Origin: Callorhinchus milii
Lineage: Eukaryota
Direction: 5' to 3'
Length of the DNA stretch: 64,000 nucleotides
NCBI RefSeq assembly: GCF_018977255.1
Contig: NW_024704743.1
Coordinates: 28,150,001 to 28,214,000 of the forward strand
Position 1 is the stretch's first letter. The number at the start of each line of letters is the position of its first letter. The notes beneath the pieces are model-generated. The model saw nothing but the letters and a program-made list of their open reading frames with translations. It was not told the DNA's origin and searched no databases. Made by a program: the position numbers and the translations under genes. Positions 4,001 to 63,815 of the stretch are shown in pieces.

Positions 4001-7000
4001 TTTTTACATTACAGAGGGTGGCTAGTGGAAAGAAAATGTTCACGAGGCTTGAAAAGGAAGAGCATTGAAGGGGATAGTGAGCAAGTAGGAGTGAAAGGTT
4101 AGATCAGGTGGCTCATGTGAAGCAAAAACACACTAACTCACACTTGATGGGCTGAAAGGCCTGCTTCTGTGATATAATATTCTATAATTTCGAATTTCTT
4201 CAGTCAGTGCCTGAACTGGAGCGTATTGGCAACTCAGCACCACTAAATGCCGCATCAGTATCTGGGTCAGTTATATCTTCGGTCATCTCACAGTAGGACA
4301 TACTGTCTTTTGTCGTCCGGTCATCAGAGTCTGACATGAATTTGACACCACCTCAGGAATGAAGCAGACCAGAGAGCCTTCTTCCTGTCTACGCTGTTCC
4401 AAACCTTCCTTCATTAGAGAGGACTGGATAGTTTCCAGGCTAGCTGCTTGGCTGAGGCCAGTCTGGACAACATCCTAAAATGCCTGTTAGTTCAGCAGGC
4501 ATCACAGACCACAAGCCCATGTGCAAAGCTTTGCATCTTGCAAAGCTGGATTCCATGATAGGACACAATATATGTATATCTTTATATTGATCTGTTTTGA
4601 TTCACCTTCTGGGTCAACAATATTGCTCTTGAAATATAGAACTAAGGGTTGGAAGATGTGACAATCAAAGTAGAATACAACCAGCCTATTGGTAATAATT
4701 ATCACTAGCAATAATTATCAGTGTGTTGGACTCTGTGCTTCTGGCAACGTCCCATTTGAATCAGGTGAACATTGAGTTAAGATAATATTCCACAAACCAG
4801 CTCAGAGATGCTGTGATCAACTGGTCTAATAAATTTTACCAAGTTGGGTCTAGGAGGATGTGGGGGTGTACAAATCTTAACTGGGACACCTATAGGAGTG
4901 GAAAGTCTGACAAGGTGATAATTACCATCAGTGATAATTATAATGTTTAACTCACATTTTTTGCCATTAAATTAAAATTCACGATTTGAGAAGGGCACAC
5001 AGAGGAAAAAATTTAATCATCCTACTATCTTTGCTTCTCCCACATTCCTGAGTCTAGTAAATGACCTCTGTGTCAACTTCAGTCTTCAGTCAATTGTACT
5101 ACTGTGTAAGGTAGAGTGCATGTATTCATTGCAATGTAACCTATAGGTTTTCTGGTACTTGTTTCCATGAGTCTCATCAGCTTTCCTTGAAAACAAATGC
5201 AAACAGTTCCTTTTACAAGGTATCATCTATCTATGCACGTGTTACCTTCAAATTCTGAAAGATGTCCTTGTGTTTGGTTCCTCGACTGTCATTGCTATGT
5301 CATCACATACTATTAAGTGTGTTTCCTGTGGTGGAGATACAGTGGATTGTGTTGATGATAGAAAAAATTTCCACTCTGCTGGTGCTGGTGTTATTGGTGA
5401 ATGTGGCGATGTTCTGGATGGAGCTCAAGCAGTGGTGATGCTGCTCTTTGGATCAGTGACAGGGGGTTCTCATGGAAAAGCTGATGTTCCAGACAGAGAG
5501 GAGCCAGTCACTGATGTGTTCCATTCTTTACCACTGTTATCCTCAATGAACTCATGCAAAAAGACAAATATTAAGTAAAGTTCGGGCAATGTGTTTTCCA
5601 CTGGGATTCAGTCCTGGCAGTAAATCCTGTGTCCTGTATCCATTACAAAGTTTTATTAAAATGCCATAAACTATGCTGTCTTCGGTACCCCCAAGGCAAT
5701 TTGTGCAGATTTAACTTCCTGCACTACATGCTCAATAATTCTAACCCTTTCTCTAGTAAAAGACAATTGAAGACTCCACCAATGGCATCACTATTTGTGA
5801 CCAGAAAGGAGTTGTGGATAGATATTTGACTTTCCCTTCTCTCTGGTATCAAAATGTAACATCATCGTGACTCGCAAATGGCAGAGCAACATTGTTACTA
5901 AACTACCTATCTTTTGATGATGGTAGGACTCATAACATGAAGCTGGATTTTTGTTTCCAATAAAGTATACCTATATCTGTTTAATTGATGAACTCCTCAA
6001 AGATCTCTGCTCTCTGAGGAGCTCATCAATTCAACTGTCACCAGGCTAGATTTACTATTGTATGATCCAATTATGGTCAATGCCAAGCACAAATATGTTA
6101 AAAATAATTGGGGTCATTTAGTTCTTGGTAAGTAGCTAGTTCACCCATAGCTTAACAGCAACAAATCTTGAAGAAGATAAAATGTATACATTTTTGCAGC
6201 TGGAGCACAAGATCATAAGAAAGGTACAGATGAACAAGACCATCCAACCCATTAGATCTCATCCTTCCAGAACACCATTGTATCATCTTCGATTGCCATT
6301 CCACCTATCGTGGGACCTCTTTGAGTAAGACTGACATTTTAATGCTAGCTTAACGGCAGCTTTATTCTCTGAATCCTTGTCTACTAGCAGCTGAGCTGAC
6401 ACTGTCCAAATAGATTTCTTACAATAACTCAATAATTTTCTAATGGAATTCATGTGCAGACTGGTAATTTAGATCTCAGCTTCATCTGTACTATACAATG
6501 AGATCCAAATAATCCAGTGGACCCACCGGAAGCAATGTGGCTGTATTTTCAAAACTCTCTAAATTGTGCTGTGACATATTTTGTAAACCAAACTGTATCT
6601 GTTCACAAATAAGCAAATAATATTTTCATCCTCTTTGTCTGGTGAATTTAACCCCATGAACCAGACGTAAAAGCCATGCCTGCCAACCCTTTGCACCACT
6701 ATAATAATAATAATAATAATAATCCTTGCATTTGATATAGCGCTTTTCACGTCGGGAGAAAGTCCCAAAGCGCTTCACAGAATACACTATAAAGTGAATT
6801 GACTGTATACTTGTGGACGAACGCGGCAGCCAATTGCGCACAGCAATGTCCCACAAACAGTCATAGATTGAAAATGACCAATTTATTATTGTTTTTGGTT
6901 TTGGAGGGATTATTATTAGGCGTGTGGAGTAAGGAAACTTGCCCAAGGTTTCGCCCTGCCTGGAATTGAACTCAGGTCTCTCGCTTACAAAGCGAGTGCT

Positions 7001-10000
7001 CTAACCACTGAACTACATAACTCAGATTATTGTGACCATGGATCCAACTATCCTTCCTTCCTCTCTGAAGCACAACAATGATAAACTACAATACATGGGA
7101 ATGGTTTATAATTTGAACCCTTTCTACCTGCAGATTTATTACCCAAACTCTTAATTAATTTCAAGAATAAACAGACAACCCTGACTGATCTGTGGCATCT
7201 TCTAACTTGTGAAAGAGTTCTTGTAACTCAATATGCCTAGTGCAATACCCTTTTTCTGCAAATAATCAATATACATTAGTGTGAACAAAGGCTTCCAAAA
7301 AGGATTTTCTGCTTCATCATAAATGTGCTTTCTGCATATAAAATAATTTTTCAGCCACAGTTGAACATCGGGCTTTTCAAGCACACTGCCTGAAATTTAT
7401 AACGCACAGCAAGCATTTGCACTTGTTCAATGCTCATAATATTTTATTTAGATCCATATGAGGAGAACTCATATAACAATTAAACAAAGCTAATATTGCC
7501 ACTCAATCTCCTTAAATGACCTGGGGTCACTACCATTTGGGGTGACATTTATAATCCACAGTGACATTTATAATGCAAGATTCTTCTTTGATGATGACTA
7601 TGATGGACCTTTAAGATGAATTTGATCCAGGTCTAATTTGAATCCTTAACACAGCAAACATACACATGCACAATATCATTTACGTAACTGCAGTCTAAAT
7701 AATACTACACAGGAACACATGTCTTTGTCATATGTGCATAAACAAATTGTTAAACATAATGTTAAACTCATTGATTCAGACTAAACATTTCCAAACCATA
7801 ATTCCCTTCACATGGATTTTTCTTCTTATAAGTAGACAGGCATGGAATTAAAGTATAAATAGATTCTAGATTATGTTTCTGGCCAGGATAAGGAAACTGC
7901 AATTAAAGAATGGGTGTTTTAGTTAATAGGAAGCCAATATAATCTCCTATTAATTGGAATGTCCTCTCTCTTTATTTTTATATTATCAATTCTCTGATCT
8001 TTTAGTTACAATCTTTGTTCAAACCCAACATTGAAAAACTATTACAAGCAAACATTTAGACAAGTGAGGCACTATGCGTGAGCTTTCATAATGTAAAACA
8101 AGAGGATTTCCCTGCAATGCCAAACCCAAACTGATTACCTGGAAACACATGTTGCTTGATGGTGATTCCATTCAGAGATCACTTAAAGAAACAATATAAT
8201 GTTAGGGTTATTATACACCAGTTATAATTCGGAATAATTACCAGTTAAAACTGCAGATGCTCTTTTATTCAAATAATGTTCCAATTAGACCTAAAACAGA
8301 ATCTAGGTAACAGAGCAAGCAGACTTAACTGAATGTCTTAAAACAATATGATTTTACTTAACATGTCTGCCTTATACTCAACAATATAAAAGCATAAGAA
8401 TAGAAAAAAGAAAAGGTTATCCAGTAGCCAAGTAACCAATTGAACTGATTGCTAGACCTATTCTATATAGACCTCATCTCAGGATGAGTTGCTTCACCAA
8501 AATAACGCAAGGATTCAAAGAGTCTTATGGAGTTTACAATGTATCTCTTCCAAATTCTTGCAGTTCATCTGCAATGACTACAGGGCATCAATTTACGAGC
8601 AAATGGGGAGGTTAGGATAATTTTGTTCATACACAGAGTAGTTAGAATATAGAATGCCCTGGCAGTTGATGCAAAATCGATATTAGCTTTCAAAAGGGAA
8701 CAAGATAAATACCTAAACATAAGTCATCTACATGGGTATGGGGAAAGGGAAGGTAAGTGGAGCTTAAAGGATTGTTCTTAAAGGAGTCGGCCAAGACACG
8801 AAGAGCCAAATGGCCTTCTTCTGTGCTATAAATCTCTATGGTTCTATCTCAAACATGCCCAGATCCAAGGCTTTGCTCCTCCATAGTCTCTTACTTCTTA
8901 ATATTCTCCACAGGTTCAGCATTCACTGTACTTCATGGTGCTTTACTTCCTAAGATTACAACTCTAGGATAAGAAGAGCATAAGCCTTATTTTACTTAGC
9001 TTTGATTTTCTTGATCTGGAGAAAGGTTAGATGAAGAACGTTTAGTGGGAAGAAGGTTTGGTTGATATTCTGGAAGGATGGGATCAAATGAGCCTTTAAA
9101 TCCAAACCTCTCTCCTGATCCTGATCATCCCAATCCATTATAAACCTCATCAAAACAACAATATTTCAATTACAGTTAATAAAAACTCAGAAAAGGCAGA
9201 CATGTCAGATATATGAATATGTATCCTTCGAGAACTACAATCTCTGAAACACCAGGTTTCGTGGATCATGCAATTGGTGAGGACACGTAAATAAAATGTT
9301 TCACTCAAGTTCCATTGTGATACAAATGCTTAAGTGCTGATACTTATAATGCATTTTGCAAGAAAGCAAAATTCATGTTTGTTTGTAAAAACAAATGAGA
9401 ACTTCACAGCTGTTTACTTAGGGCCTTGCATCATGATATGTGCTTTGTAAATGTTAAATCTGCAGCACCGTTTTACAGCTAACTGTGTCCTCTTATCCCT
9501 GTGCTGATTCTGTACTATGGTGAAAGTGTGGTGAAAGTGTGTCTCCCAGGAAATAAATTACACTTACAGTCATCACTTTAGCCTGGCCTGGTCTGGCATA
9601 ACTTTCAGGGAGATTACTTTGGATGAGATGTTAAATCAGATCCCTGATCTCCTGTTCAGGTGGACATTAAAGATTCCACGGCATTAATTGAAAAGAGAAA
9701 GGAGTTTCTCTCATTGCCCTGACCAACAATGCAACCCCCAAAAATTGGCCATTCATTTCATGGATGTTTCGTGGCATTTGGCTGTGCACAACTGGACTGT
9801 TGCGTTTGCTTCCAAATACACAGTCACTCAACTTTACAGAAAATACTATTAAACATCTTGGTACGTCCTTTCAATTTGAAAGGCACTGCATCAATTATAA
9901 GGATTATTATTCTTAATAGTTTGGCCATCAATAAATGAGCATAGGAATAGAGTTAGCACGAAGGCAAGAGGAAGACGGAGATGGATTGTATGGGTGCTGC

Positions 10001-24974: not shown

Positions 24975-25083
24975 GTGCCCAACTAGTCCATGTCATATTT
25001 ATACTGCACGTGCCCAACTAGTCCATGTCATATTTATACTGCACGTGCCCAACTAGTCCATGTCATATTTATACTGCACGTGC
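24975..25083 (+). repeat. Perfect 35-bp tandem triplication
   Basis: (GTGCCCAACTAGTCCATGTCATATTTATACTGCAC)x3 inside a decayed CR1 tail. Confidence 0.95.
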
Positions 25084-28000
25084 GTCTCCACCCTCTCCTT
25101 TATGCATTCTGTTCCATATCCTATTCCCTTCTCCCTCATGTGTATATCTAGCTTCCTCTTGAATGAATCTATATGATTTGTTTCAACCACCATTCCGGGC
25201 AGTGAGTTCCACATTCTCACTACCCTCTGCCAGAAGTAATTCCTCCCAAATTCTCTTTTAGATTCCTAGTCACTATCTTATATTTGTGTCCCTGGCCAAA
25301 AAAAATAGGATATTTTTCTTCCCCCTTTTCAAATAGTGTCGTGGGATTATTACCATCCACTTGGACACGGACACATGACATTGGTCTGACATCTCATCTC
25401 TAGGATGCCACCTTCAACAATGCAATACAACCCAGCACTGCAGTGGAGTGTTCAGCCCAGACTATGTGAGTTCAAACTCTCAATGTGTACTTGAAAATAA
25501 AACCCTCTGATTCAGAGGTAAGAGCACTACTGAATGAACCAGGCAAGCACCTATTTGAAAAAGAAATATGTACAGTGTAGTGTAAGTAGTGTGTAGAACA
25601 TGTCCCTCACATTTTCTTATGTACATTATACACAAAATCCATATTTCAGGTGTTTGTCTGCATTACTCATTTACTGCTTTGGAGAGATTAACAAATATGG
25701 TAATTGTTAATGATTTGGGACTGCTACCTGGAATGCATGGCAAAATTTGATCCCGTCTTGTGTGGACTCTGAGAATCCAAACGTGTGCAATTTATTATTC
25801 CTAGAATTGTGATATCATAGAACTATAAGAATTTTCAGCACTTAAGGTCATTCGGTCTATTAAGTCAGTTTATATTGTTTTTTTTAATATAATTGTCTAA
25901 TTCCCTTTCAAAATTTATTATGATTTTGCTTAAACCATTGACTATGGTAGGGAAATCCATGTGTTAATACCCCCACTGGATGTAAAAAAAAAACCTCTCC
26001 CTTTGTCTCTCTTTGATGATAATTTTAAATTATTTATTTACCGAGTCACCGATTATAAAACAAAAAAGCCTATTTTTCCAAGAAAGTAGAAATAATGTGG
26101 AATTTATGTAGGAAAGGACTGTTCCAGCCTCCAGCAGGCCTCTCAAAGCCAATCTCTGGTTATTACTGGACTTGATCCCTGTCCAGATCTCCAGTAGTGA
26201 AGGAGATTAACGTCTTTCTCTTTACACCACCTACCTGGAGTGCCTGGTCTCTTTTTTGTATAAATCTTTAAAAGGAATTTCTAAAATAAAATCGGTTGCA
26301 CCAACTAGAGAATTTACCCCCCCACCCCCCCCATTACCTAGGGTCATATTCCTTCTGCAAAGCATCATTCCAAAATCCTAACCATGCATGTCCATTTAGA
26401 TTGAACAGCCAGTTCAAAAATTTGAAGGTTTATGTTTTTAGATAGCATCTAAACAGTTTATTCATTATATGTATTATTTTAATTTTCCTGTTCTACGTTT
26501 AGTTCTTTTGTCTGTTTATCCTCTGTTCTAAACTTTGTTTTAACAATCCAAGCACCTAATGCAGTTTACAACATGCTACTGTTAATCATTTTATAGAGCA
26601 AAGTCCCATATTCTGGTTTTGAAGACATTTGCGTAATTTAAGTCTTAAATTACTAAATGTCCCAAACCAGAGTTGATTTTGCACTCTTTACTCACTTCAG
26701 ACTCCATCAATATTAACTATATCATTTTTGGACTTGTAGGAGTTTCAGGAATTCCATTGTCACTTGCTATCAGTTTAACATTTCAGCTCTGGCACTTTGT
26801 GGCTGAACATTCTCTTTATAGTAATAAGCTGAGTCAAATTGTAGAAGTAGCTTTATTTACTGTGATGTTGAGATTTAGATTGCTATCAAATCCTGAGAGA
26901 ATGCTGACTCCCTTGGCTGGCAATTATGTCGTAAAATGTTATTTTTCTATCATGATACTAAAATAATCACTAATATTATACAGTAACAAACATATACAAA
27001 TGCCACAAAAATTCATTATAACACTAATAATCCATTTATTTAAGATAGCATCTTATTACATCGTCAAAATCTCTCGAAGCTTTTCACAGGATTTTACTGC
27101 AGAGCGTAGTGACCGTGATTCAAAAAAAATAATAAGTTGGTCACTCAATCCACGACTGTTTGTGGGACACTTCTGTGCAAAATTGACTGCCACGTTTCAC
27201 CCACAAAATATACAATCAATTCACTTTACAGTATATTCTGTGAAGTGCTTTGAGACCTCTTGAAGATATGATAAGGTGCTACATCAAATGCAACGATTAT
27301 TATTATTATATTTATCCCTAAACTGCAAAATGGACACTTCACCCTTAGACTGGTAGCAAAATAGTTATGGATGTTTCTATCTCCATAGGCTGACTGATGA
27401 CTGCTACTTCCTGAACTTCTCCAAGCCTATTCCTTTGATTACCCCTCCTCTTAGCAAATTCTGGTTTGTGTTCATCCTCTGTGATCTCAGCGCCACCATC
27501 AATGGTCTAGTCTTTATTTCTTACACCCCTAACCTCTGGAACTTTGCCCATGTCCGACTGTATCTTACTCTCTTTCCTTTATTGTTAGGTATTCCGAGAC
27601 TCTACCTTCCGAAAAGGGTGCCACATAAATACAGGTTGGTGTTATTGTTGTTGTAAGTCATGCCTCAAATCCCAGCTTTCATACGCTTCTCTGGCCACCT
27701 CTCCCTCCTCTGCTCAGGGTCGAACTGCATCCCTGTAAAGTGCTCTGAGATAAATGCAAGTGGTTGTATTGTGACTCTGCATTATTTGAGATGGAACGTT
27801 GAAGCTATTCATTCGAAGTTACATCCATCCTAAATCCATTCAACTTTTGCTCAGACTCTGCCGGAGAGAATGTGTGTTTCATTCAGAGATAGGTAAATGT
27901 GTAGGTGAAATACATATGTGGACTTCTCAATCTGGTTTGGATACTCTTAAACATATGATAGGTTTCCGCACGCGTCAGACAATGGGCTGTCCGAAAAATA

Positions 28001-28297
28001 ACTGTGAACGTTTAACTTTTGGTGTTGGTGCAGAGGGTGGGAAATTGCAGTTTGTGATTTAATAGTTATCAATGGCATCAGCTATCACTGATTAAAGTTA
28101 TCACAAGTGCAATACCTTGTAGGCATCTGCCTACGAATACATAGTTACCGCATGTTTTAACTCTTCTAGCAGTTTCAGGAATTCCATTCTCTCACAGTAA
28201 TACCTGTGAATTGCTTTAGGACACTTTGACATAAGGCACTATATCGAATGCAAGATTAGTATCATAATACTGTACCATGTAGTCATGTCTACACTGG

Positions 28298-28364
28298 TCA
28301 CCAGTCAATAATAAGTGTGCTAATGTTACTAGTCAGTAACAAGAGAGTGCTGAAATCGCCAGTC
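28298..28364 (+). repeat. About 2 degenerate orphan units of the same 30-bp minisatellite
   Basis: tcaccagtcaataataagtgtgctaatgttac / tagtcagtaacaagagagtgctgaaatcgc / cagtc align to the array consensus. Confidence 0.85.
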
Positions 28365-28920
28365 TTTAAGCAGGATTTCCTTGGAGCTGAACTGGCAGTC
28401 TGTGTGGTGGTCTCGGTACAGCGGTTCCTGAGCCAGGCGGGTCTGCCCTGTTCCAGGGCACTGCTGATGACAGCACAGCCAGCCAGCCTGGCGCATTGAC
28501 AGGACCTGGAATTAGCAGACCAGTCACTGGAGGCAGGGAGTCATCCCACTCAGCTCCTGCAAGCTAAAGCCCTAATGGGTAGTAGACTTGTCCTATCTGG
28601 ACAAGCAGCGGGAAAGCTTGCCAGACAGCAATATCAATGGCAATCTTTGTGGTTTTAGTTGGTTTGACTACAGCAGTTACCCCAACACACACTCTGGGGT
28701 TCCCAAGCCTTGGCTCTTGCCAACCTGGACCTAATACGTTCCCGAATTAGTTAAGCAGGACCCGTCCCTCCAGCGAGACAGTGCACATTCCATTCCAATA
28801 AATATTTATGGGGTTTCCAGGTGTAGGTGGGAGGTGTGGAAATCTCTGTTCCGTTTGGATACTCTTTAGCATTGTGATGGGTTTCCGCATGTGTCAGACA
28901 CCCGTCTGACCGACAAAAAA
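28365..28920 (+). mobile_element. Unclassified retroposon (556 bp) inserted into the minisatellite
   Basis: Flanked by CAGTC direct repeats (28360-28364 and 28921-28925) and ends in a short A tail. Homologous copies at about 39215-39720 and 27860-27997. Confidence 0.75.
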
Positions 28921-30180
28921 CAGTCAATAACAAGAGCGTGCTGACATCACCAGTCAATAACAAGAGGGTGTTGACATCACCAGTCAATAACAAGAGGGTG
29001 TTGACATCACCAGTCAATAACAAGAGCGTGCTGACATCACCAGTCAATAACAAGAGCGTGCTGACATCACCAGTCAATAACAAGAGCGTGCTGACATAAC
29101 CAGTCAATAACAAGAGCGTGCTGACATCACCAGTCAATAACAAGAGGGTGTTGACATCACCAGTCAATAACAAGAGGGTGTTGACATCACCAGTCAATAA
29201 CAAGAGCGTGCTGACATCACCAGTCAATAACAAGAGCGTGCTGACATCACCAGTCAATAACAAGAGCGTGCTGACATAACCAGTCAATAACAAGAGCGTG
29301 CTGACATCACCAGTCAATAACAAGAGCGTGCTGACATCACCAGTCAATAACAAGAGGGTGTTGACATCACCAGTCAATAACAAGAGGGTGTTGACATCAC
29401 CAGTCAATAACAAGAGCGTGCTGACATCACCAGTCAATAACAAGAGCGTGCTGACATCACCAGTCAATAACAAGAGCGTGCTGACATCACCAGTCAATAA
29501 CAAGAGCGTGCTGACATCACCAGTCAATAACAAGAGCGTGCTGACATCACCAGTCAATAACAAGAGCGTGCTGACATCACCAGTCAATAACAAGAGCGTG
29601 CTGACATCACCAGTCAATAACAAGAGCGTGCTGACATCACCAGTCAATAACAAGAGCGTGCTGACATCACCAGTCAATAACAAGAGCGTGCTGACATCAC
29701 CAGTCAATAACAAGAGCGTGCTGACATCACCAGTCAATAACAAGAGCGTGCTGACATCACCAGTCAATAACAAGAGCGTGCTGACATCACCAGTCAATAA
29801 CAAGAGGGTGCTGACATCACCAGTCAATAACAAGGGCGTGCTGACATCACCAGTCAATAACAAGAGCGTGCTGACATCACCAGTCAATAACAAGAGCGTG
29901 CTGACATCACCAGTCAATAACAAGAGCGTGCTGACATCACCAGTCAATAACAAGAGCGTGCTGACATCACCAGTCAATAACAAGAGCGTGCTGACATCAC
30001 CAGTCAATAACAAGAGCGTGCTGACATCACCAGTCAATAACAAGAGCGTGCTGACATCACCAGCCAATAACAAGAGGGTGCTGACATCACCAGCCAATAA
30101 CAAGAGCGTGCTGACGTCACCAGCCGATTACACGAACGCGATGACGTCACTAGCCAACAACACACGTGTGCTGACGTCAC
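28921..30180 (+). repeat. 30-bp minisatellite, 42 units (consensus CAGTCAATAACAAGAGCGTGCTGACATCAC)
   Basis: Exact 30-nt periodicity, two units per 60-nt line: 38 near-identical units plus 4 promoter-proximal variant units. Confidence 0.98.
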
Positions 30181-30290
30181 TGCGGAGGGAGGCCGCCGCC
30201 ATCTTGGCGGTTCAGCGGCGGCTGCGGGTCTCGGGTTTGTCAGTTACTACACTCCCCTCCCCCCACACCCCCCTTCCCCCCCCCCGCACC
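30061..30290 (+). promoter_or_regulatory. CpG-rich RPRD1 core promoter / 5'UTR with 3 CRE, 2 CCAAT, 1 E-box and a YY1 motif
   Basis: TGACGTCA at 30112, 30142 and 30172; CCAAT at 30064 and 30094; CACGTG at 30163; GCCGCCATCTTG (reverse complement of the YY1 motif CAAGATGGCGGC) at 30195-30206. CpG-dense relative to the rest of the window. Confidence 0.8.
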
Positions 30291-30441
30291 ATGTCCGCCT
30301 TCTCCGAGGCTGCTCTGGAGAAGAAACTGCTGGAGCTAAGCAACTCCCAGCAGAGCGTCCAGACCCTGTCCCTGTGGCTCATCCACCACCGCAAACACTC
30401 CAAGATCATCGTCCTGGTCTGGCACCGCGAGCTCCGCAAAG
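30291..30441 (+). CDS. RPRD1A: RPRD1-family CID protein, coding exon 1 (MSAFSEAALEKKLLELSNSQQSVQTLSLWLIHHRKHSKIIVLVWHRELRK)
   Basis: Kozak-like gcaccATGt start. Translation matches the RPRD1A/B N-terminus (MSAFSEAA is the RPRD1A form). Donor G|gtaaga at 30442; 151 nt, phase 1. Confidence 0.93.
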
Positions 30442-30496
30442 GTAAGAGAGAGACTGAGACACACACACACACACACAGGGAAGGAGAGGACAGGGA

Positions 30497-33212
30497 GAGA
30501 CTGACACACAGAGAGAGTGAGAGACTGGCCTCAGAGAGAGAGCCTGGCCTCAGAGAGTGAGAGACTGGCCTCAGAGAGAGAGAGAGAGACTGGCCTCAGA
30601 AAGAGAGAGTGAGAGACTGGCCTCAGAGAGAGAGAGAGAGAGACTGGCCTCAGAAAGAGAGAGTGAGAGACTGGCCTCAGAGAGAGAGAGAGAGAGACTG
30701 GCCTCAGAGAGAGAGAGACTGGCCTCAGAGAGTGAGAGACTGGCCTCAGAGAGAGAGAGACTGGCCTCAGAGAGAGAGAGAGAGAGCCTGGCCTCAGAGA
30801 GAGAGTGAGAGACTGGCCTCAGAGAGAGAGAGTGAGAGACTGGCCTCAGAGAGAGAGAGACTGGCCTCAGAGAGAGAGAGTGAGAGACTGGCCTCAGAGA
30901 GAGAGAGACTGGCCTCAGAGAGAGAGAGTGAGAGACTGGCCTCAGAGAGAGAGACTGGCCTCAGAGAGAGAGAGTGAGAGACTGGCCTCAGAGAGTGAGA
31001 GACTGGCCTCAGAGAGTGAGAGACTGGCCTCAGAGAGTGAGAGTGAGAGACTGGCCTCAGAGAGAGAGAGTGAGAGACTGGCCTCAGAGAGAGAGAGTGA
31101 GAGACTGGCCTCAGAGAGTGAGAGACTGGCCTCAGAGAGTGAGAGACTGGCCTCAGAGAGTGAGAGTGAGAGACTGGCCTCAGAGAGTGAGAGACTGGCC
31201 TCAGAGAGAGAGAGTGAGAGACTGGCCTCAGAGAGAGTGAGAGACTGGCCTCAGAGAGAGAGAGTGAGAGCCTGGCCTCAGAGAGAGAGAGTGAGAGACT
31301 GGCCTCAGAGAGAGTGAGAGACTGGCCTCAGAGAGAGAGGGTGAGAGACTGGCCTCAGAGAGTGAGAGACTGGCCTCAGAGAGAGTGAGAGACTGGCCTC
31401 AGAGAGAGAGAGTGAGAGACTGGCCTCAGAGAGTGAGAGACTGGCCTCAGAGAGTGAGAGACTGGCCTCAGAGAGTGAGAGCCTGGCCTCAGAGAGAGAG
31501 AGAGACTGGCCTCAGAGAGAGAGGGTGAGAGACTGGCCTCAGAGAGTGAGAGACTGGCCTCAGAGAGAGTGAGAGACTGGCCTCAGAGAGAGAGAGTGAG
31601 AGCCTGGCCTCAGAAAGAGAGAGTGAGAGACTGGCCTCAGAGAGAGAGAGTGAGAGACTGGCCTCAGAGAGTGAGAGACTGGCCTCAGAGAGTGAGAGAC
31701 TGGCCTCAGAGAGTGAGAGCCTGGCCTCAGAGAGAGAGAGAGACTGGCCTCAGAGAGAGAGACTGGCCTCAGAGAGAGAGAGTGAGAGCCTGGCCTCAGA
31801 AAGAGAGAGTGAGAGACTGGTCTCAGAGAGAGAGAGTGAGAGACTGGCCTCAGAGAGTGAGAGACTGGCCTCAGAGAGAGAGAGAGACTGGCCTCAGAGA
31901 GTGAGAGCCTGGCCTCAGAGAGTGAGAGTGAGAGACTGGCCTCAGAGAGAGAGACTGGCCTCAGAGAGAGAGACTGGCCTCAGAGAGAGTGAGAGACTGG
32001 CCTCAGAGAGAGAGACTGGCCTCAGAAAGAGAGAGTGAGAGACTGGCCTCAGAGAGTGAGAGTGAGAGACTGGTCTCAGAGAGAGAGAGTGAGAGACTGG
32101 CCTCAGAGAGTGAGAGCCTGGCCTCAGAGAGTGAGAGTGAGAGACTGGACTCAGAGAGAGAGACTGGCCTCAGAAAGAGAGAGTGAGAGACTGGCCTCAG
32201 AGAGTGAGAGTGAGAGACTGGTCTCAGAGAGAGAGAGTGAGAGACTGGCCTCAGAGAGAGAGACTGGCCTCAGAGAGAGCGACTAGCCTCAGAGAGAGAG
32301 ACTGGCCTCAGAAAGAGAGAGTGAGAGACTGGCCTCAGAGAGTGAGAGACTGGCCTCAGAGAGAGAGAGACTGGCCTCAGAGAGAGAGAGTGAGAGACTG
32401 GCCTCAGAGAGAGAGTGAGACTGGCCTCAGAGAGAGAGAGAGCCTGGCCTCAGAGAGAGAGACTGGCCTCAGAGTGAGAGACTGGCCTCAGAGAGAGAGA
32501 GAGCCTGGCCTCAGAGAGAGTGAGAGCCTGGCCTCAGAGAGAGAGACTGGCCTCAGAGAGAGAGCCTGGCCTCAGAGAGAGAGAGTGAGAGACTGGCCTC
32601 AGAGAGTGAGAGACTGGCCTCAGAGAGAGAGAGAGAGAGCCTGGCCTCAGAGAGAGAGAGAGCCTGGCCTCAGAGAGAGAGACTGGCCTCAGAGAGAGAG
32701 AGAGAGAGAGAGCCTGGCCTCAGAGAGAGAGAGTGAGAGACTGGCCTCAGAGAGAGAGAGTGAGAGACTGGCCTCAGAGAGAGAGAGCCTGGCCTCAGAG
32801 AGAGAGAGAGCCTGGCCTCAGAGAGAGAGAGAGCCTGGCCTCAGAGAGAGTGAGAGCCTGGCCTCAGAGAGAGTGAGAGCCTGGCCTCAGAGAGAGAGAC
32901 TGGCCTCAGAGAGAGAGAGACTGGCCTCAGAGAGAGAGAGTGAGAGACTGGCCTCAGAGAGAGAGAGACTGGCCTCAGAGAGAGAGAGTGAGAGACTGGC
33001 CTCAGAGAGAGAGAGACTGGCCTCAGAGAGAGAGAGTGAGAGACTGGCCTCAGAGAGAGAGAGAGAGAGAGACTGGCCTCAGAGAGAGAGAGTGAGAGAC
33101 TGGCCTCAGAGAGAGAGAGACTGGCCTCAGAGAGAGAGAGAGAGAGAGCCTGGCCTCAGAGAGAGTGAGAGACTGGCCTCAGAGAGAGCGAGAGAGAGAC
33201 TGACTTCAGAGC
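30497..33212 (+). repeat. Compound satellite in intron 1: core (GA/GC)CTGGCCTCA separated by variable (GA)n[GT(GA)n] tracts
   Basis: About 2.7 kb of about 19-33 nt units, directly visible. Explains all RDWPQRE/ERLASE ORFs. Confidence 0.97.
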
Positions 33213-34569
33213 AGAGAAAGAGGGATCCTGGCCCTAAAGCAGAGAGCACCTGGCCTGAGCCACGGTGTTTGCTGCTTTATCCAGTGCCTGTGCAGCCTCG
33301 GGATCCAACTAGTCAACTGGACGGTCAGGTCCACTGTAATTCTCGCTATGAGAGATAATCAGAGGGCACCATGTTATTACAATAACAGGATATTAACACA
33401 GCATCTCCGTCTTATTGTGATCAGTGATATACAGGATCACTGCATCCTTGTTACTATTATAATATCGACAATGGTCCTCATATCACTGAACTATCAGCAA
33501 TTAACCTACTGTTATATCAATGCTTCATATTCATGTTAATCACGTACTATATTTGTGTAAGCAATGCAGTGTTATTGCAATATTCATAATGCATGGTTAC
33601 TATAATGCTAGTGGTCCTTGTAAAATTGACAGTGCACAGTATTATCACCATTATCACCAGTATTATTACTGTTTCAGGCTTATTACTCTATTGGACTGCA
33701 TTCTTGCCAGGATCTCGGTTTTGCACCATGCCGATCACAATAAAATAGAATAACAATTTTGTTGTAGTGGGCATTCTCCTGGAAAATAATCTTGTTTACT
33801 GTTAGACTATTCCTGTGCAGCCTTTCTCCAATTTTTGTTACTTCTGCATTAAGGTAATTTCTTTTTAAGCTTTCCTCATTTTCACACAGTCACTCACGAT
33901 CTAGGCTGACACTCCAGTGCAGTGCAGTAGGTGTGCTTAATTGTTGGACGTACTCTCCTTCAGATGAGACTTTAAACTGAGGACCCTGTCAGGTGGACGC
34001 GAAAGATTCCATTGCACTATTCAAAAAGGGCAGAGAGTTTTTTCCACTGTCCTGGCCAACATTTCCCAGATAAAATTGGTCACTCACTTCATGGCTGTTT
34101 GTGGGACATTGGTGTGTGCAAATTTACTGTTGCATTCACGTACACATACACAGTCATTGCACTTCACAGTAAAATCTTGTGAAGCACTTTGAGACATCTT
34201 GACAATGTGGTAAGGTGCCATATCAAATGCAAGGATTATTATTGTATATTTAAGCCATGGCAGAAAGGTATTTGCCTCAAGGCATCACATTATACTACAC
34301 TGAAGACATGGATAAGTCTTGTGATGTTAAAACCCAAATTGGCTTCTGATTATACAAGGCTTCAACTTTTCATCGCTCAATAGGTCAACATATGTACCAG
34401 ATTTGCTTAAACCCTTTTTCTCAGATACCATTGTTCTATTGGTCTACATTTCTGCTCAAATCTATGTCTTTTAGTGTTTGGAGTGTGCCATTTTGTAATT
34501 TTGGTATTCTAATGCTGCAAGTAGATGATTACTGATGAGAAAAATTAATATTGTTTGAGCCTTGAGGTG

Positions 34570-37639: not shown

Positions 37640-38960
37640 GAATCATAGAATTGTACAGCACAGAAGGAGGCCATTCGGCCCATTGTGTCTGTGTCGGCTC
37701 TTTGAAAAGAGCCATCCAATTCAATCCCACTCCCCCGCTCTCTCCCCACAGCCCTGCAAATAATTATCTGCTTCTCTCTTAAAAGTTGTTATTGAAATCG
37801 GCTTCTACCATCCTTTCAGGCAGTGCATTCCAGATCCGAACAATTCGCTGCGTGAAAAAAATTCTCCTCACCGCCCCCCTCTGTTTCTTTTAACAACTAT
37901 TTTAAATCAGTGCCCTTGGGATAATCAGTGGAAATAGTTTCTCCTTCTTTACCCTACTGAATCCCCTCATAATTTTGAAAACTTCTATTGTCTCCTCTGC
38001 TCCAAGGAGAATAATCCTAGCTTCTCTCTCCTCTCCCCTTAACTGAAGTCCCTCATTCCTGGTATTTTCCTGGTAAATCTCCTTTGCACCCTCTCCAATG
38101 CCTTGACATAAAGTGTGGGGCCCAGAACTGAACACAGCTAAGGCCAAATATCTGTTTCATAAAGGTTCATCTTTTCTATGCTATGCCCCTATTTATAAAG
38201 CCTAGCAACCCTTATGCTTTCTAACCGCTTTATCTACCTGTCCTGCCACCTTCAAAGATGTATTTATATGAACCCCCAGGTCTCTCTGTTCCTTCACCCC
38301 CTTTAAGACTGTACCATCTAACTCCAGTGGTTAGAGTGCTCTAATCACTGGAGTCCTGTAGCTCAGTGGTTAGAGCACTCGCCTCGCAAGAGAGAGACCT
38401 GGGTTAGTTTCCTGGCAGGGCGAAGCCTTGGGCAAGTTTCCTTACTCCACGTGCCTCATAATAATCCCTCAAGAAAAAATAAATGAATAAATAATAATAA
38501 TTTGGTCGCTCAATCCACGACTGTTTGTGGAACACCTCTGTGCGCAATTGGCTGCCGTGTTTCGCCCACAAATATAGAGTCAATTCACTTTACAGTATAT
38601 TCTGTGAAGCGCTTTGAGATGTCTCCAAGACGTGAAAAGCGCTATATTAAATGCAAAGATTATTATTATTTTATATTGCCTCTCCTCATTCTTCCTCCCA
38701 AAATGCATCACTTCGCACATTAAACTTCATCTGCCACGTGTCTGCCTATTTTACCAGTCTGTCTTTGTCTATCTGCCTTCTGCGACTATCTTCCTCACTA
38801 CCTACTACTTTTCCGATCTTAGTATCATCTGCAAACTAGGAAATTGTACTCCCTGTACCCAAGTCCGGGTCATTTATGTAGATCAAAAACAGCAGTGGTC
38901 CCAATACTGACCCCTGGGGGACACCACTGCACACTTCCCTCCAGTCAGAAAAGCAACTGT
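37640..38960 (-). mobile_element. CR1-clade LINE fragment (RT region to 3' tail)
   Basis: Minus strand reads agtggtgtcccccaggggtcagtattgggacc ([11 protein letters not shown]) and tttgcagatgatactaag (FADDTK). CR1 tail at 37640-37700. Confidence 0.88.
38349..38672 (+). mobile_element. tRNA-derived DeuSINE, short form, inserted into a CR1 fragment
   Basis: ggagtcctgtagctcagtggttagagcac head and (TTA)n tail. CR1 sequence resumes on both sides. Confidence 0.85.
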
Positions 38961-39214: not shown

Positions 39215-39720
39215 AGGGCAAGTAAGTGGTGTCTCCTTGGAGTTGAACCAGCTCCAAGGTGACATGCTTCGCAATAGAAAGTCGGAATCAAGTCATCCCT
39301 CCTTGGCGTTCTCAGTAGACTGACTCCTGAGTCAGGCTCGTTCGCAGAGCTCGGGGCAGGGAGTCTTCCCACTCGCCTCCTGAAAGCCCATGCCCTAATG
39401 GGTAGGGTGGTCCTAGTTGTACAAGCATTGGCAAGTTTGTCAGACAATGTTTTCAATGGCAAGCAATGTGCATTTTGATGATTAAACTTCAACAATACCC
39501 CAAATCATACTCTGAGATCCCCAAGTCTTGACTCTTGCCAAACCTGCTCCTAATACGGTTCAGTGTTAGGTAAGCAGGGAACAGAGTGTGCATATTCCAT
39601 TGCAATAGATGGGAGTTTCCATGTGGCGGTGGAATGTATAGAACTCTGTTTGGTTTGGACACTCTTTAATCATGGTGATGAATTGCCTTATGTGTTAGTC
39701 ACCCAGCTAACAAAATAAAA
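39215..39720 (+). mobile_element. Second, diverged copy of the unclassified retroposon
   Basis: Shares ggcagggagtc.tcccactc...gccctaatgggtag, ccaag.cttg.ctcttgccaa and ctctgtt..gtttgga.actcttta with 28365-28920, with the same A-rich 3' end. Confidence 0.75.
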
Positions 39721-40624
39721 ATTATACATACATGCAGAAACACTGCATTTACTACCAAAACTATTAATGGGAATGAAGGCATCATGTGTCAATTCACCAG
39801 CCTATGTCTTCAGGTGATAATAAATACTGTTTATACTTGTTTCTTATCATCTCAAAATATCTCAAACTGCTTCAAACAATGAATGATTTTAAAGTGTAGT
39901 AAATATAATTCTGAATTAAATCATGGCAGCTGACCGTAGGTCAAGCATAATCACACAATGAACAATAAGATGTATGACCATTTACTCTGTTTTTGTGATG
40001 AATTTCATTGAGAGGAGAGTATTGGCTAGGGCACCAGAAGAATCACTGCTGTTGAAAATATTACCATGCGATTTCTAAACCCTACCTGAGCTACCAGTCA
40101 GGATCTTAATTTAACATTGCATACAAAGAATAGGACTTATATACAGTTCTGCACTGTTGCACTGTCTAGATTAGTTCTGGTGGTTAGGTTAAAACCCACA
40201 ACCTTGTAGTTGCATATTGATGTTGTTAATCTGGCTCATTTGGTTGACTCTCACTGTTGAGTCCAAAGGTTGTGGTTGAAGTCCCACGTTGGGGCTTTGA
40301 ACTCAAAGAGTCTAGGCTGACACGTCATTGCATTGTTAGGGGTGCACTGTATTGTTGGATTTGCCATCCTTTGAATTAGATGTTAAACCAATGCCCACTC
40401 TTCCTGTTCAGGTGGACATTAAAGACCCCATGGGAATATTCAACATGAAAATGGAGTTTTTCCTGGTATTCTGGCCAATACCCCCCTCAGGTGAAATTGG
40501 CCCTTCACGGTTCATCACTATTTGTAGGACCTTGCTGTTCACAAATCGCTGCTGTGTTTGCCCACAAAATTCAGTCACCACACTTTACAGTAAATACTGT
40601 GAAGTGTTTTGAGTTATAATATGT

Positions 40625-40835
40625 AATAATAATAATCCTTGCATTTGACATAGCGCTTTTCACGTCTTCAAGACATCCCAAAGCGCTTCACAGAATATAC
40701 TGTAAAGTGAATTGACTGTATATTTGTGGGTGAACGCGGCAGCCAATTGCGCACAGCAGTGTCCCACAAACAGTCGTGGACTGAAAATGACCAATTTATT
40801 ATTGTTTTTGTTTTTTTGGAGGGATTATTATTGGC
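40625..40835 (-). mobile_element. 3' half of the tRNA-derived DeuSINE, inserted into an older SINE (40230-40905)
   Basis: (ATT)n tail and Deu block on the minus strand, interrupting the tail of a + strand older SINE. Confidence 0.75.
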
Positions 40836-42694: not shown

Positions 42695-42824
42695 CTAAAC
42701 CAAACCGAAAACTAACCTTCCTGTATCTGGCGAATGATGTGATCCAGAACAGTAAGAAAAAGGGCCCAGAGTTTACCAAGGACTTTGCACCTGTTTTGGT
42801 GGATGCATTTTCACATGTTTCAAG
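42695..42824 (+). CDS. RPRD1A: RPRD1 exon 2 (AKPNRKLTFLYLANDVIQNSKKKGPEFTKDFAPVLVDAFSHVS)
   Basis: tccacag| acceptor and AG|gtactc donor; 130 nt. Contains the CID motif LYLANDVIQNS. KPNRK and TKDFAPV are RPRD1A-type residues. Confidence 0.93.
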
Positions 42825-47169: not shown

Positions 47170-47535
47170 AAACTCTGTTGCTCAGTGGTTAGAGCACTCG
47201 TCTTGCAAGCGAAGAGACCTGGGCTCGATTCCCGGCAGGTGAAATGTTAGGCAAGTTTCCTTACTCCACACATCGCTTTACCTAGCAGTAAGTAGGAACC
47301 CGGTTGTCAGTCGATTGGCGGATCGTTTTAAGGGGGGTAATAATTCCTTCAAAAAAAATAATAAATTGGTCATTTCAATCCACAACTGTTTGTGGAACAC
47401 TGCTGTGCGCAATTGGCTGCTGCATTTCACCCATAAAAATATACAGTCAATTCACTTTGCAGTATATTCTGTGGAATATACTTGGATGTCTCGAAGATGT
47501 GATAAGGCTATATCAAATGCAAGGATTATTATTTT
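47170..47535 (+). mobile_element. tRNA-derived DeuSINE, long form
   Basis: gctcagtggttagagc ... gggctcgattcccggc head, cctagcagtaagtaggaacccgg segment, Deu block, (TTA)n tail. Confidence 0.85.
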
Positions 47536-56716: not shown

Positions 56717-57080
56717 TGGAATCCTGTAACTCAGTGGTTAGAGCTCTCATCTCGCAAGTGAGAGACTTGGGTTCGATTCCCGGCAGGGCTAAATGTTACT
56801 CCACATTCCTCTATTTACCTAGCAGTAAGAGGAACCCGGTTGTTAGTCGATTGGCGGATCACTTTTCTGGGGGTGATAATTCCTTAAAAAAAATCAATAA
56901 TAATAAATTGGTCACTTCAATTCACGATTATTTGTGGGACGACTGCTGTGCACAATTGGCTGCCACGTTTTCGCCCACAAAATATGCAGTCAATTCACTA
57001 CAGTATATTCTGCGAAGCACTTTGAGATGTCTCAAAGACGTGATAAGGTGCTATATCAAATGCGAGGATTATTATTATAT
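56717..57080 (+). mobile_element. tRNA-derived DeuSINE, long form
   Basis: A box taactcagtgg, B box ggttcgattcc, same body and tail as 47170. Confidence 0.85.
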
Positions 57081-63493: not shown

Positions 63494-63815
63494 AAATAAT
63501 AATAATAATAATCCTTGCATTTGATATAGCGCTTTTCACGTCGGGAGGACGTCCCAAAGCACTTCACAGAACACACTGTAAAGTGAATTGACTGTATATT
63601 TGTGGGCGAACGCGGCAGCCAATTGTGCACAGCAATGTCCCACAAACAGTCATGGATGAAAACTACCAATTTATTATTGTTTTGTTTTTTGGAGGGATTA
63701 TTATTAGGCTCTGTGTGGAGTAAGGAAACTTGCCCAAGGTTTCGCCCTGTTTGGAATTGAACTCGGGTCTCTCGCTTGCAAAGCGAGTGCTCTAACCACT
63801 GAGCTACAGGACTCC
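63494..63815 (-). mobile_element. tRNA-derived DeuSINE, short form (well-preserved copy)
   Basis: Complete head ggagtcctgtagctcagtggttagagcactcgctttgcaagcgagagacccgagttcaattcc and (ATT)n tail. Confidence 0.88.

Follow-up and report, generated by a model that had tools for sequence, protein, structure and literature searches.

The elephant shark RPRD1A gene is preceded by a promoter-proximal minisatellite, in which 30-bp units stand head to tail beside the CpG island of an expressed gene. Within the window (the whole 64-kb stretch of DNA analyzed here), this array probably has a double nature. A CRE/CCAAT/YY1 promoter would have been built from three or four old tandem modules, and a degenerate version of the module would have expanded neutrally upstream of it. 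Two decayed units were also found on the far side of a retroposon fragment that abuts the array. Coordinates are collected in Table 1.

Table 1. Features in and around the RPRD1A promoter array (positions are those of the window)
Feature	Position	Strand	Basis
Two stranded, decayed units (orphans), in array orientation	28298-28364	+	BLAST, 81% over 69 columns, E 7.6e-12
Interspersed repeat fragment, A-rich 3' end, 556 bp	28365-28920	+	Three further copies in the window
Retroposon copy, 71% alike	39355-39704	+	Common A-rich end
Retroposon copy, 77% alike	23348-23214	-	Common A-rich end
Retroposon copy, 76% alike	27917-28001	+	Common A-rich end
38 near-identical distal units (units 1-38)	28921-30060	+	Tandem Repeats Finder, unit parse; 60-nt contig
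Unit 39, transitional: CCAAT (30064) and TGACATCA (30082)	30061-30090	+	Unit parse
Units 40-42: three CRE palindromes TGACGTCA (30112, 30142, 30172), CCAAT (30094, unit 40), E-box CACGTG (30163, unit 42)	30091-30180	+	Unit parse
YY1-type motif (presumed)	30195-30206	+	Sequence; expected at or just downstream of the transcription start
Small CpG-island-like core over proximal units and 5' leader	30000-30350	.	200-nt windows
First coding exon of RPRD1A, encoding the beginning of the CID domain and joined to exon 2 (42695)	30291-30441	+	PDB, Pfam CID, contig
Unrelated AG-rich minisatellite, start of RPRD1A intron 1	30512-33233	+	Tandem Repeats Finder rows; almost no CpG

Array structure and the RPRD1A promoter

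Tandem Repeats Finder called the array at 28921-30180, with a period of 30, 42.0 copies, 96% matches and 0% indels. The 42 units of 30 bp described in the first-pass annotation thus lie where they had been placed, but the end given there, 30210, takes in the YY1 motif; the actual end is 30180. A unit-by-unit parse bore out every motif position and gave nine unit types in the order ABBAACABBAACAABBAAAAAAAAAAAAADEAAAAAAAFGHI. GTCAAT is found in 38 of the 42 units, namely, units 1 to 38. The octamer TGACATCA is present in 37/42 units (36 of the 38 distal units and unit 39), and TGACATAA is present in two, both distal (29092 and 29272). The three CRE palindromes of units 40 to 42 make up three of the five occurrences of that sequence in the 64-kb window. 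Only unit 40 combines an intact CCAAT with an intact CRE (1/42 units). The CCAAT position reads CCGAT in unit 41 and CCAAC in unit 42, and all 38 distal units lack CCAAT. The distal units vary among themselves at only four positions. In most units TGC precedes the octamer (28939-28945 of the window and each unit), which would give a putative half-site like that of Maf-family factors.

The motifs had been described as a gradient running into the promoter. CREs and CCAAT boxes are indeed confined to the proximal units as placed, but the change is a step, with four divergent units set against 38. Measured against the main unit, units 41 and 42 each show differences at 8/30 positions, units 39 and 40 at 2, and distal variants at 0 to 2. 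Between units 41 and 42 there are 10 differences, and the pairwise differences among units 40 to 42 number 6 to 10, none of them inside the CRE. For units 40 to 42, 0/11 variable positions fall in the 8-bp CRE (P of 0.013 under random placement, a post hoc value, as the CRE was picked for testing since it is conspicuous). Because none of these 11 positions lies in the CRE, despite the CpG inside it, the comparison suggests that the proximal units are functional. Divergence of the end units is common to tandem arrays in general, whose ends are reported to homogenize less efficiently than their centers (PMC5615363).

The motif at 30195 is presumably of the YY1 type. In human promoters, the region immediately 5' of the core promoter is reported to be enriched in activator motifs such as NFY, and the region shortly after the start in YY1 (PMC11269187). 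The order seen here, with the proximal units followed by the YY1 motif, fits that arrangement. The working RPRD1A promoter is best explained as the proximal three to four units, with their CREs, CCAAT boxes, and E-box, plus the putative YY1 site. Windows of 200 nt from 30000 to 30324 have a GC content of 0.55 to 0.65 and a CpG observed/expected ratio (o/e) of 0.90 to 1.01; across the whole 64 kb, CpG o/e is 0.31. The CpG-rich core overlaps units 37 to 42, and the array is thus within 1 kb of the island. Expressed elephant shark start sites are reported to be mostly unmethylated, with the genome otherwise methylated (PMC5437953).

Assignment of the gene to the RPRD1 family holds, and PDB matches together with contigs from public run X5 now specify the paralogue as RPRD1A. 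The best PDB match of exon 1, whose start codon is the ATG at 30291, was RPRD1A 4jxt (E of 1.3e-22, 80.7 bits), and RPRD1B scored an E of 9.7e-22 (78 bits). Run X5 is presumably RNA, and in one of its contigs exon 1 continues into sequence found at 42699, where an AG acceptor precedes it. A second transcript in this run has 12 differences, and its continuation is RPRD1B-like in alignment. Since that second transcript is RPRD1B-like and exon 1 is nearer to RPRD1A, the gene in the window is RPRD1A. The X5 exon 1 contig aligned from 30276 only, in a C-rich tract, and contigs cannot show a start. In another X5 contig, exon 1 runs into a cryptic exon that begins at 40412, directly after a canonical acceptor; SINE-like repeat matches (40517-40810) lie close by. 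This junction is possibly a minor nonproductive splice form.

On the upstream side, a search for a divergent coding gene returned nothing, as 0/137 stop-to-stop frames of at least 54 amino acids in positions 1 to 28300 matched Pfam at an E of 0.001; short exons and noncoding genes would be missed by this search. On the downstream side, the AG-rich array of intron 1 runs for 2.7 kb in variable-length units and is motif-poor. With the upstream array, it leaves the CpG island flanked by tandem arrays on both sides. A perfect tandem repeat elsewhere in the window (24975-25083, 3.1 copies of 35 bp) has 100% matches and is therefore a recent local duplication.

We rejected the idea that the array codes for protein. 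Frames of 458 amino acids (minus strand) and 426 amino acids (plus strand) are open, but a stop-free 30-bp unit gives that automatically, and Pfam hits on the repeat part were of low complexity and below the cutoffs. The plus-strand frame at 29280-30560 reads without a stop in the same phase as the RPRD1A start, and unit 41 supplies a single in-frame ATG ahead of that start; this frame would matter only for transcripts that start within the array. Rfam at gathering thresholds found no structured RNA in or near the array and gave five tRNA-like matches elsewhere in the window (6951-7022, 38352-38423, 47175-47238, 56720-56791, and 63742-63813). These adjoin copies of an abundant short repeat and are probably the heads of a tRNA-derived SINE.

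Stranded units, an inserted retroposon, and the age of the array

While the array itself had been located correctly, the first-pass annotation overlooked the two orphan units and the retroposon fragment that lies between them and the array. The orphans were the best of 1664 nonarray tiles, with a score of 95 compared to 62 for the next-best location. They read GTCAAT and GTCAGT. Relative to the distal unit, they carry four and two changes in the TGACATCA site, and both have lost the site. Their alignment score is 108 to the distal units and 80 to units 39 to 42. Because the orphans align better to distal than to proximal units, the CCAAT-less, degenerate unit type appears to be older than the retroposon insertion.

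The intervening 556 bp are most simply read as a 5'-truncated non-LTR retroposon that inserted into an existing array. Its four copies in the window, with matched lengths of 86, 137, 374, and 556 bp, share one A-rich end point and differ in their 5' extent; a common A-rich 3' end with variable 5' truncation is expected of non-LTR elements. Homology at the 5' side, back to about 28367, is weak, as 5/300 shuffles reach the score. The first base of the array directly follows the A-run of the retroposon. The 5-mer CAGTC flanks the element in array register (28360-28364 and 28921-28925). This pair is a possible target-site duplication, although such a match is partly expected in a tandem array and the 5' boundary is weak.

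We were unable to assign the element to a retroposon family from Pfam or representative-protein searches. The open frame of the copy at 23 kb had no Pfam match, and among 1.84 billion representatives it gave four hits, one a 39-amino-acid fragment with 62% identity and three that are apparently spurious repeats. The 39-amino-acid fragment (P0003), which comes from another source, matches the 3' frame of the A-tailed repeat at that identity. Derivation of the 30-bp unit from the flanking retroposon was rejected: the other three copies stop before unit-like sequence, and beyond the orphans no unit-like tile outside the array scores well.

Compared to unit 40, the distal unit shows two transitions, of which one is a CpG G-to-A change and the other, in CCAAT, is not at a CpG. 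The earlier proposal was that one promoter module lost its CRE CpG and then expanded. Its derivation part is supported, since the distal unit is two substitutions from unit 40, but the history appears to have been no single recent burst. Derivation of the array from the promoter module would be the most economical history because unit 40 is so close to the distal unit and because the CRE is invariant in the divergent proximal units. Exact block repeats occur in the uniform distal part; units 1 to 6 equal units 7 to 12 (180 bp), and units 1 to 5 equal units 14 to 18. From these repeats, the orphans, and the 71 to 77% likeness of the retroposon copies, which is the basis for calling the insertion old, the array appears to be old and under continued turnover, with its newest growth at the distal end.

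For an orthologous promoter, run X10 (organism B) yielded only the RPRD1B-type paralogue and C-rich repeats on the stretch compared. A metagenome scan gave at least 28 related loci at 56 to 74% identity, which are too distant to inform. Among the matches listed, 24 loci had more than 250 bp upstream, and neither a CRE nor TGACATCA was present in the nearest 400 bp of any of them (0/24).

Assembly and copy number

We compared four of 24 public runs over 30001-30455 (455 bases), among the contig pieces listed. Runs X1, X2, and X5 each contain the main unit as a 60-nt contig without difference. The junction of units 38 and 39 is crossed, with 0 differences, by an X2 contig (30035-30076). Two X1 contigs cover 30086-30124 (0 differences) and 30095-30455 (1 difference and 5 gap letters). 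The first-pass annotation had raised the prospect of an assembly artifact, and the recurrence of the main unit and of the junctions through units 38 to 42 in contigs of two samples speaks against it. So do the structured variants and the decayed orphans, which an assembler would not invent. In favor of an artifact, main-unit depth is below the 26.6-fold expectation (the window allele predicts 26.6 copies of main-unit 31-mers), and the contig comparison covered the right end of the array (from 30001). The depth would be accounted for just as well if other animals carried shorter alleles. Taken together, we give next to no credence to the array, or most of its length, being an assembly error, and an inflated copy number alone, without a wholesale artifact, is perhaps rather unlikely.

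Relative to neighboring single-copy contigs, the main-unit contig had about 3 to 5.5 times the depth in X1 and 5 to 9 times in X2, although contig depth is no copy number. Its depth was 17.6 in X1 versus 42.6 in X2, a 2.4-fold difference between runs of similar overall depth, whereas two multilocus C-rich bins differed 1.07- to 1.08-fold. These depths are a weak hint of shorter, unequal alleles between samples. In the presumed RNA run X5, the main unit had a depth of 4.2, an intron-boundary contig 4.3, and exon 1 104. DNA may be present in that run, and the main-unit depth of 4.2 is no evidence on transcription.

Origin and possible roles of the distal units

Promoter-proximal minisatellites with transcription factor sites include the TPMT, SLC6A4, and INS VNTRs. 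Common human VNTRs are reported to be enriched near CpG-island promoters (PMC8096271). The human promoter VNTRs resemble our array in having a minisatellite-size unit less than 1 kb from a CpG-island promoter, with factor motifs inside. They differ in that a link to expression is known for the human set, whereas in our array there is no more than a hint of length polymorphism, and in that the RPRD1A unit would be a degenerate copy of its own promoter's CCAAT+CRE module, split by a datable retroposon. In apple MdMYB10 R6, a segment of the gene's own promoter is likewise tandemly repeated upstream of the original copy. R6 has five extra copies of a 23-bp unit; MYB10 binds to these copies, expression rises, and the resulting phenotype has been demonstrated (PMC11321683). 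By comparison, the 38 RPRD1A copies have lost the consensus motifs. The Epstein-Barr virus BZLF1 ZII element has the octamer TGACATCA in common with the array and is bound by ATF2; CREB, ATF1, c-Jun, and XBP-1 are also reported to bind the ZII octamer (PMC3944714). ZII occurs once, no more than 70 bp from the start, and has other flanks, while the array would offer 36 putative sites 150 to 1270 bp upstream. A search of titles and the starts of abstracts, which largely did not cover subscription journals, found no paper on the RPRD1A array.

Our favored history runs as follows. The proximal units would go back to a single 30-bp CCAAT+CRE module that was duplicated in tandem long ago, and copies beyond the unmethylated island would have shed both the CpG of the CRE and the CCAAT box. 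A retroposon would later have inserted between two such copies, stranding two that then decayed; the arrangement is seen in the window, and the order of events is our reconstruction. Slippage or unequal exchange would then have expanded and homogenized the degenerate unit between insertion and promoter, with the latest rounds at the distal end, where the block duplications lie. The 38 distal units would probably be neutral and variable in length, a by-product that binds bZIP factors weakly at most and hardly affects RPRD1A output. We favor neutrality because few promoter repeats affected expression in a survey of Aspergillus (17/392 promoter-repeat/expression tests were significant; PMC3516485) and because an unrelated, motif-poor array bounds the other side of the same island. 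Counting against neutrality, the degenerate unit outlasted an old insertion and is still 96% uniform, as maintenance would also give, and TGACATCA is a demonstrated ATF2 site without a CpG (PMC3944714).

The history could also be turned around. A motif-poor minisatellite would then have been there first, next to the gene, and point mutations would have created CRE and CCAAT in its proximal units, which were retained as parts of the promoter. The orphans, which are the oldest units that can be dated, belong to the distal type, and the two changes that separate the distal unit from unit 40 could be read in this direction as well. However, this order needs a CpG gain in a CpG-depleted genome, and because of the window CpG o/e of 0.31 we consider loss of the CpG from the CRE likelier than gain. 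Units 41 and 42, which are 10 changes apart, share the CRE and a C at position 4, implying that these states are old. Orphan 1 is three changes from the CRE state and four from the distal state, which slightly favors an ancestral CRE. We therefore regard the reverse history as very unlikely. That the array is a spacer or boundary, which separates the CpG island from the retroposons upstream of it and holds back spreading methylation, while the intron 1 array does likewise on the opposite side, strikes us as highly improbable; most CpG-island promoters do without a flanking array. Such a role would agree with arrays on both sides of the island and a retroposon fragment abutting the left end, and transposons are reported to be hypermethylated in the elephant shark (PMC5437953). 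It would also agree with the other CpG of the unit, which is intact in 31/38 distal units (7/38 lost it by C-to-G change and none by deamination), giving the distal array a CpG o/e of 0.47 to 0.67 against 0.31 for the window. This survival could mean low methylation, which would also count against neutral expansion, but the retention is not significant (P of 0.03 to 0.30 under assumed rates).

More weight is due to the idea that the 36 to 37 TGACATCA sites bind ATF2/Jun-type dimers, as a copy-number-tunable enhancer or a factor sink, and thereby make the RPRD1A CRE/CCAAT promoter responsive to stress in a length-dependent way. We still judge it unlikely. TGACATCA is a demonstrated ATF2 site in the viral BZLF1 promoter, where its mutation is reported to cut reporter activation from 60-fold to 18-fold (PMC3944714), and it is intact in 36/38 distal units. 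Since it has no CpG, methylation cannot block the site directly, and a published, CpG-free ATF2 site makes a dosage effect possible. Precedents are apple MYB10 R6 (PMC11321683) and the 187 human genes whose expression is linked to a VNTR (PMC8096271), and the 2.4-fold depth difference between X1 and X2 is a weak hint of length variation. However, the sites had been called near-phased, and on free DNA this does not hold. At 10.5 bp/turn, one 30-bp unit makes 2.857 turns, so that each unit shifts by 51 degrees and the face flips every 3.5 units, and near phase is reached only at 10.0 to 10.2 bp/turn. Furthermore, CCAAT is lost in 38/38 distal units, and the octamer is not visibly spared there, with one of the four variable positions inside it (a test with little power). 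The sites also lie about 150 to 1270 bp upstream of the YY1 motif, outside the zone of -120 to -40 within which activator sites are reported to be helically positioned (PMC11269187). The fuller proposal, that an old array, still being renewed, of about 36 CpG-free ATF2/Jun-type sites, derived from the CRE of the gene itself by deamination, serves as a methylation-proof, length-polymorphic stress input on RPRD1A, is in our estimate quite unlikely.

With neutral expansion of a degenerate module as the preferred reading, the locus is a natural example of a promoter module seeding a minisatellite, in which intact, transitional, expanded, and stranded units stand side by side. The retroposon insertion supplies a relative date for the array. 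If allele length alters RPRD1A expression, CpG decay plus amplification would be a route to a new regulatory input. If the stress-input reading is true, decay of a CRE and its later amplification would have brought the promoter under a different set of bZIP factors, and in natural populations the amount of a Pol II CTD regulator would depend on allele length.
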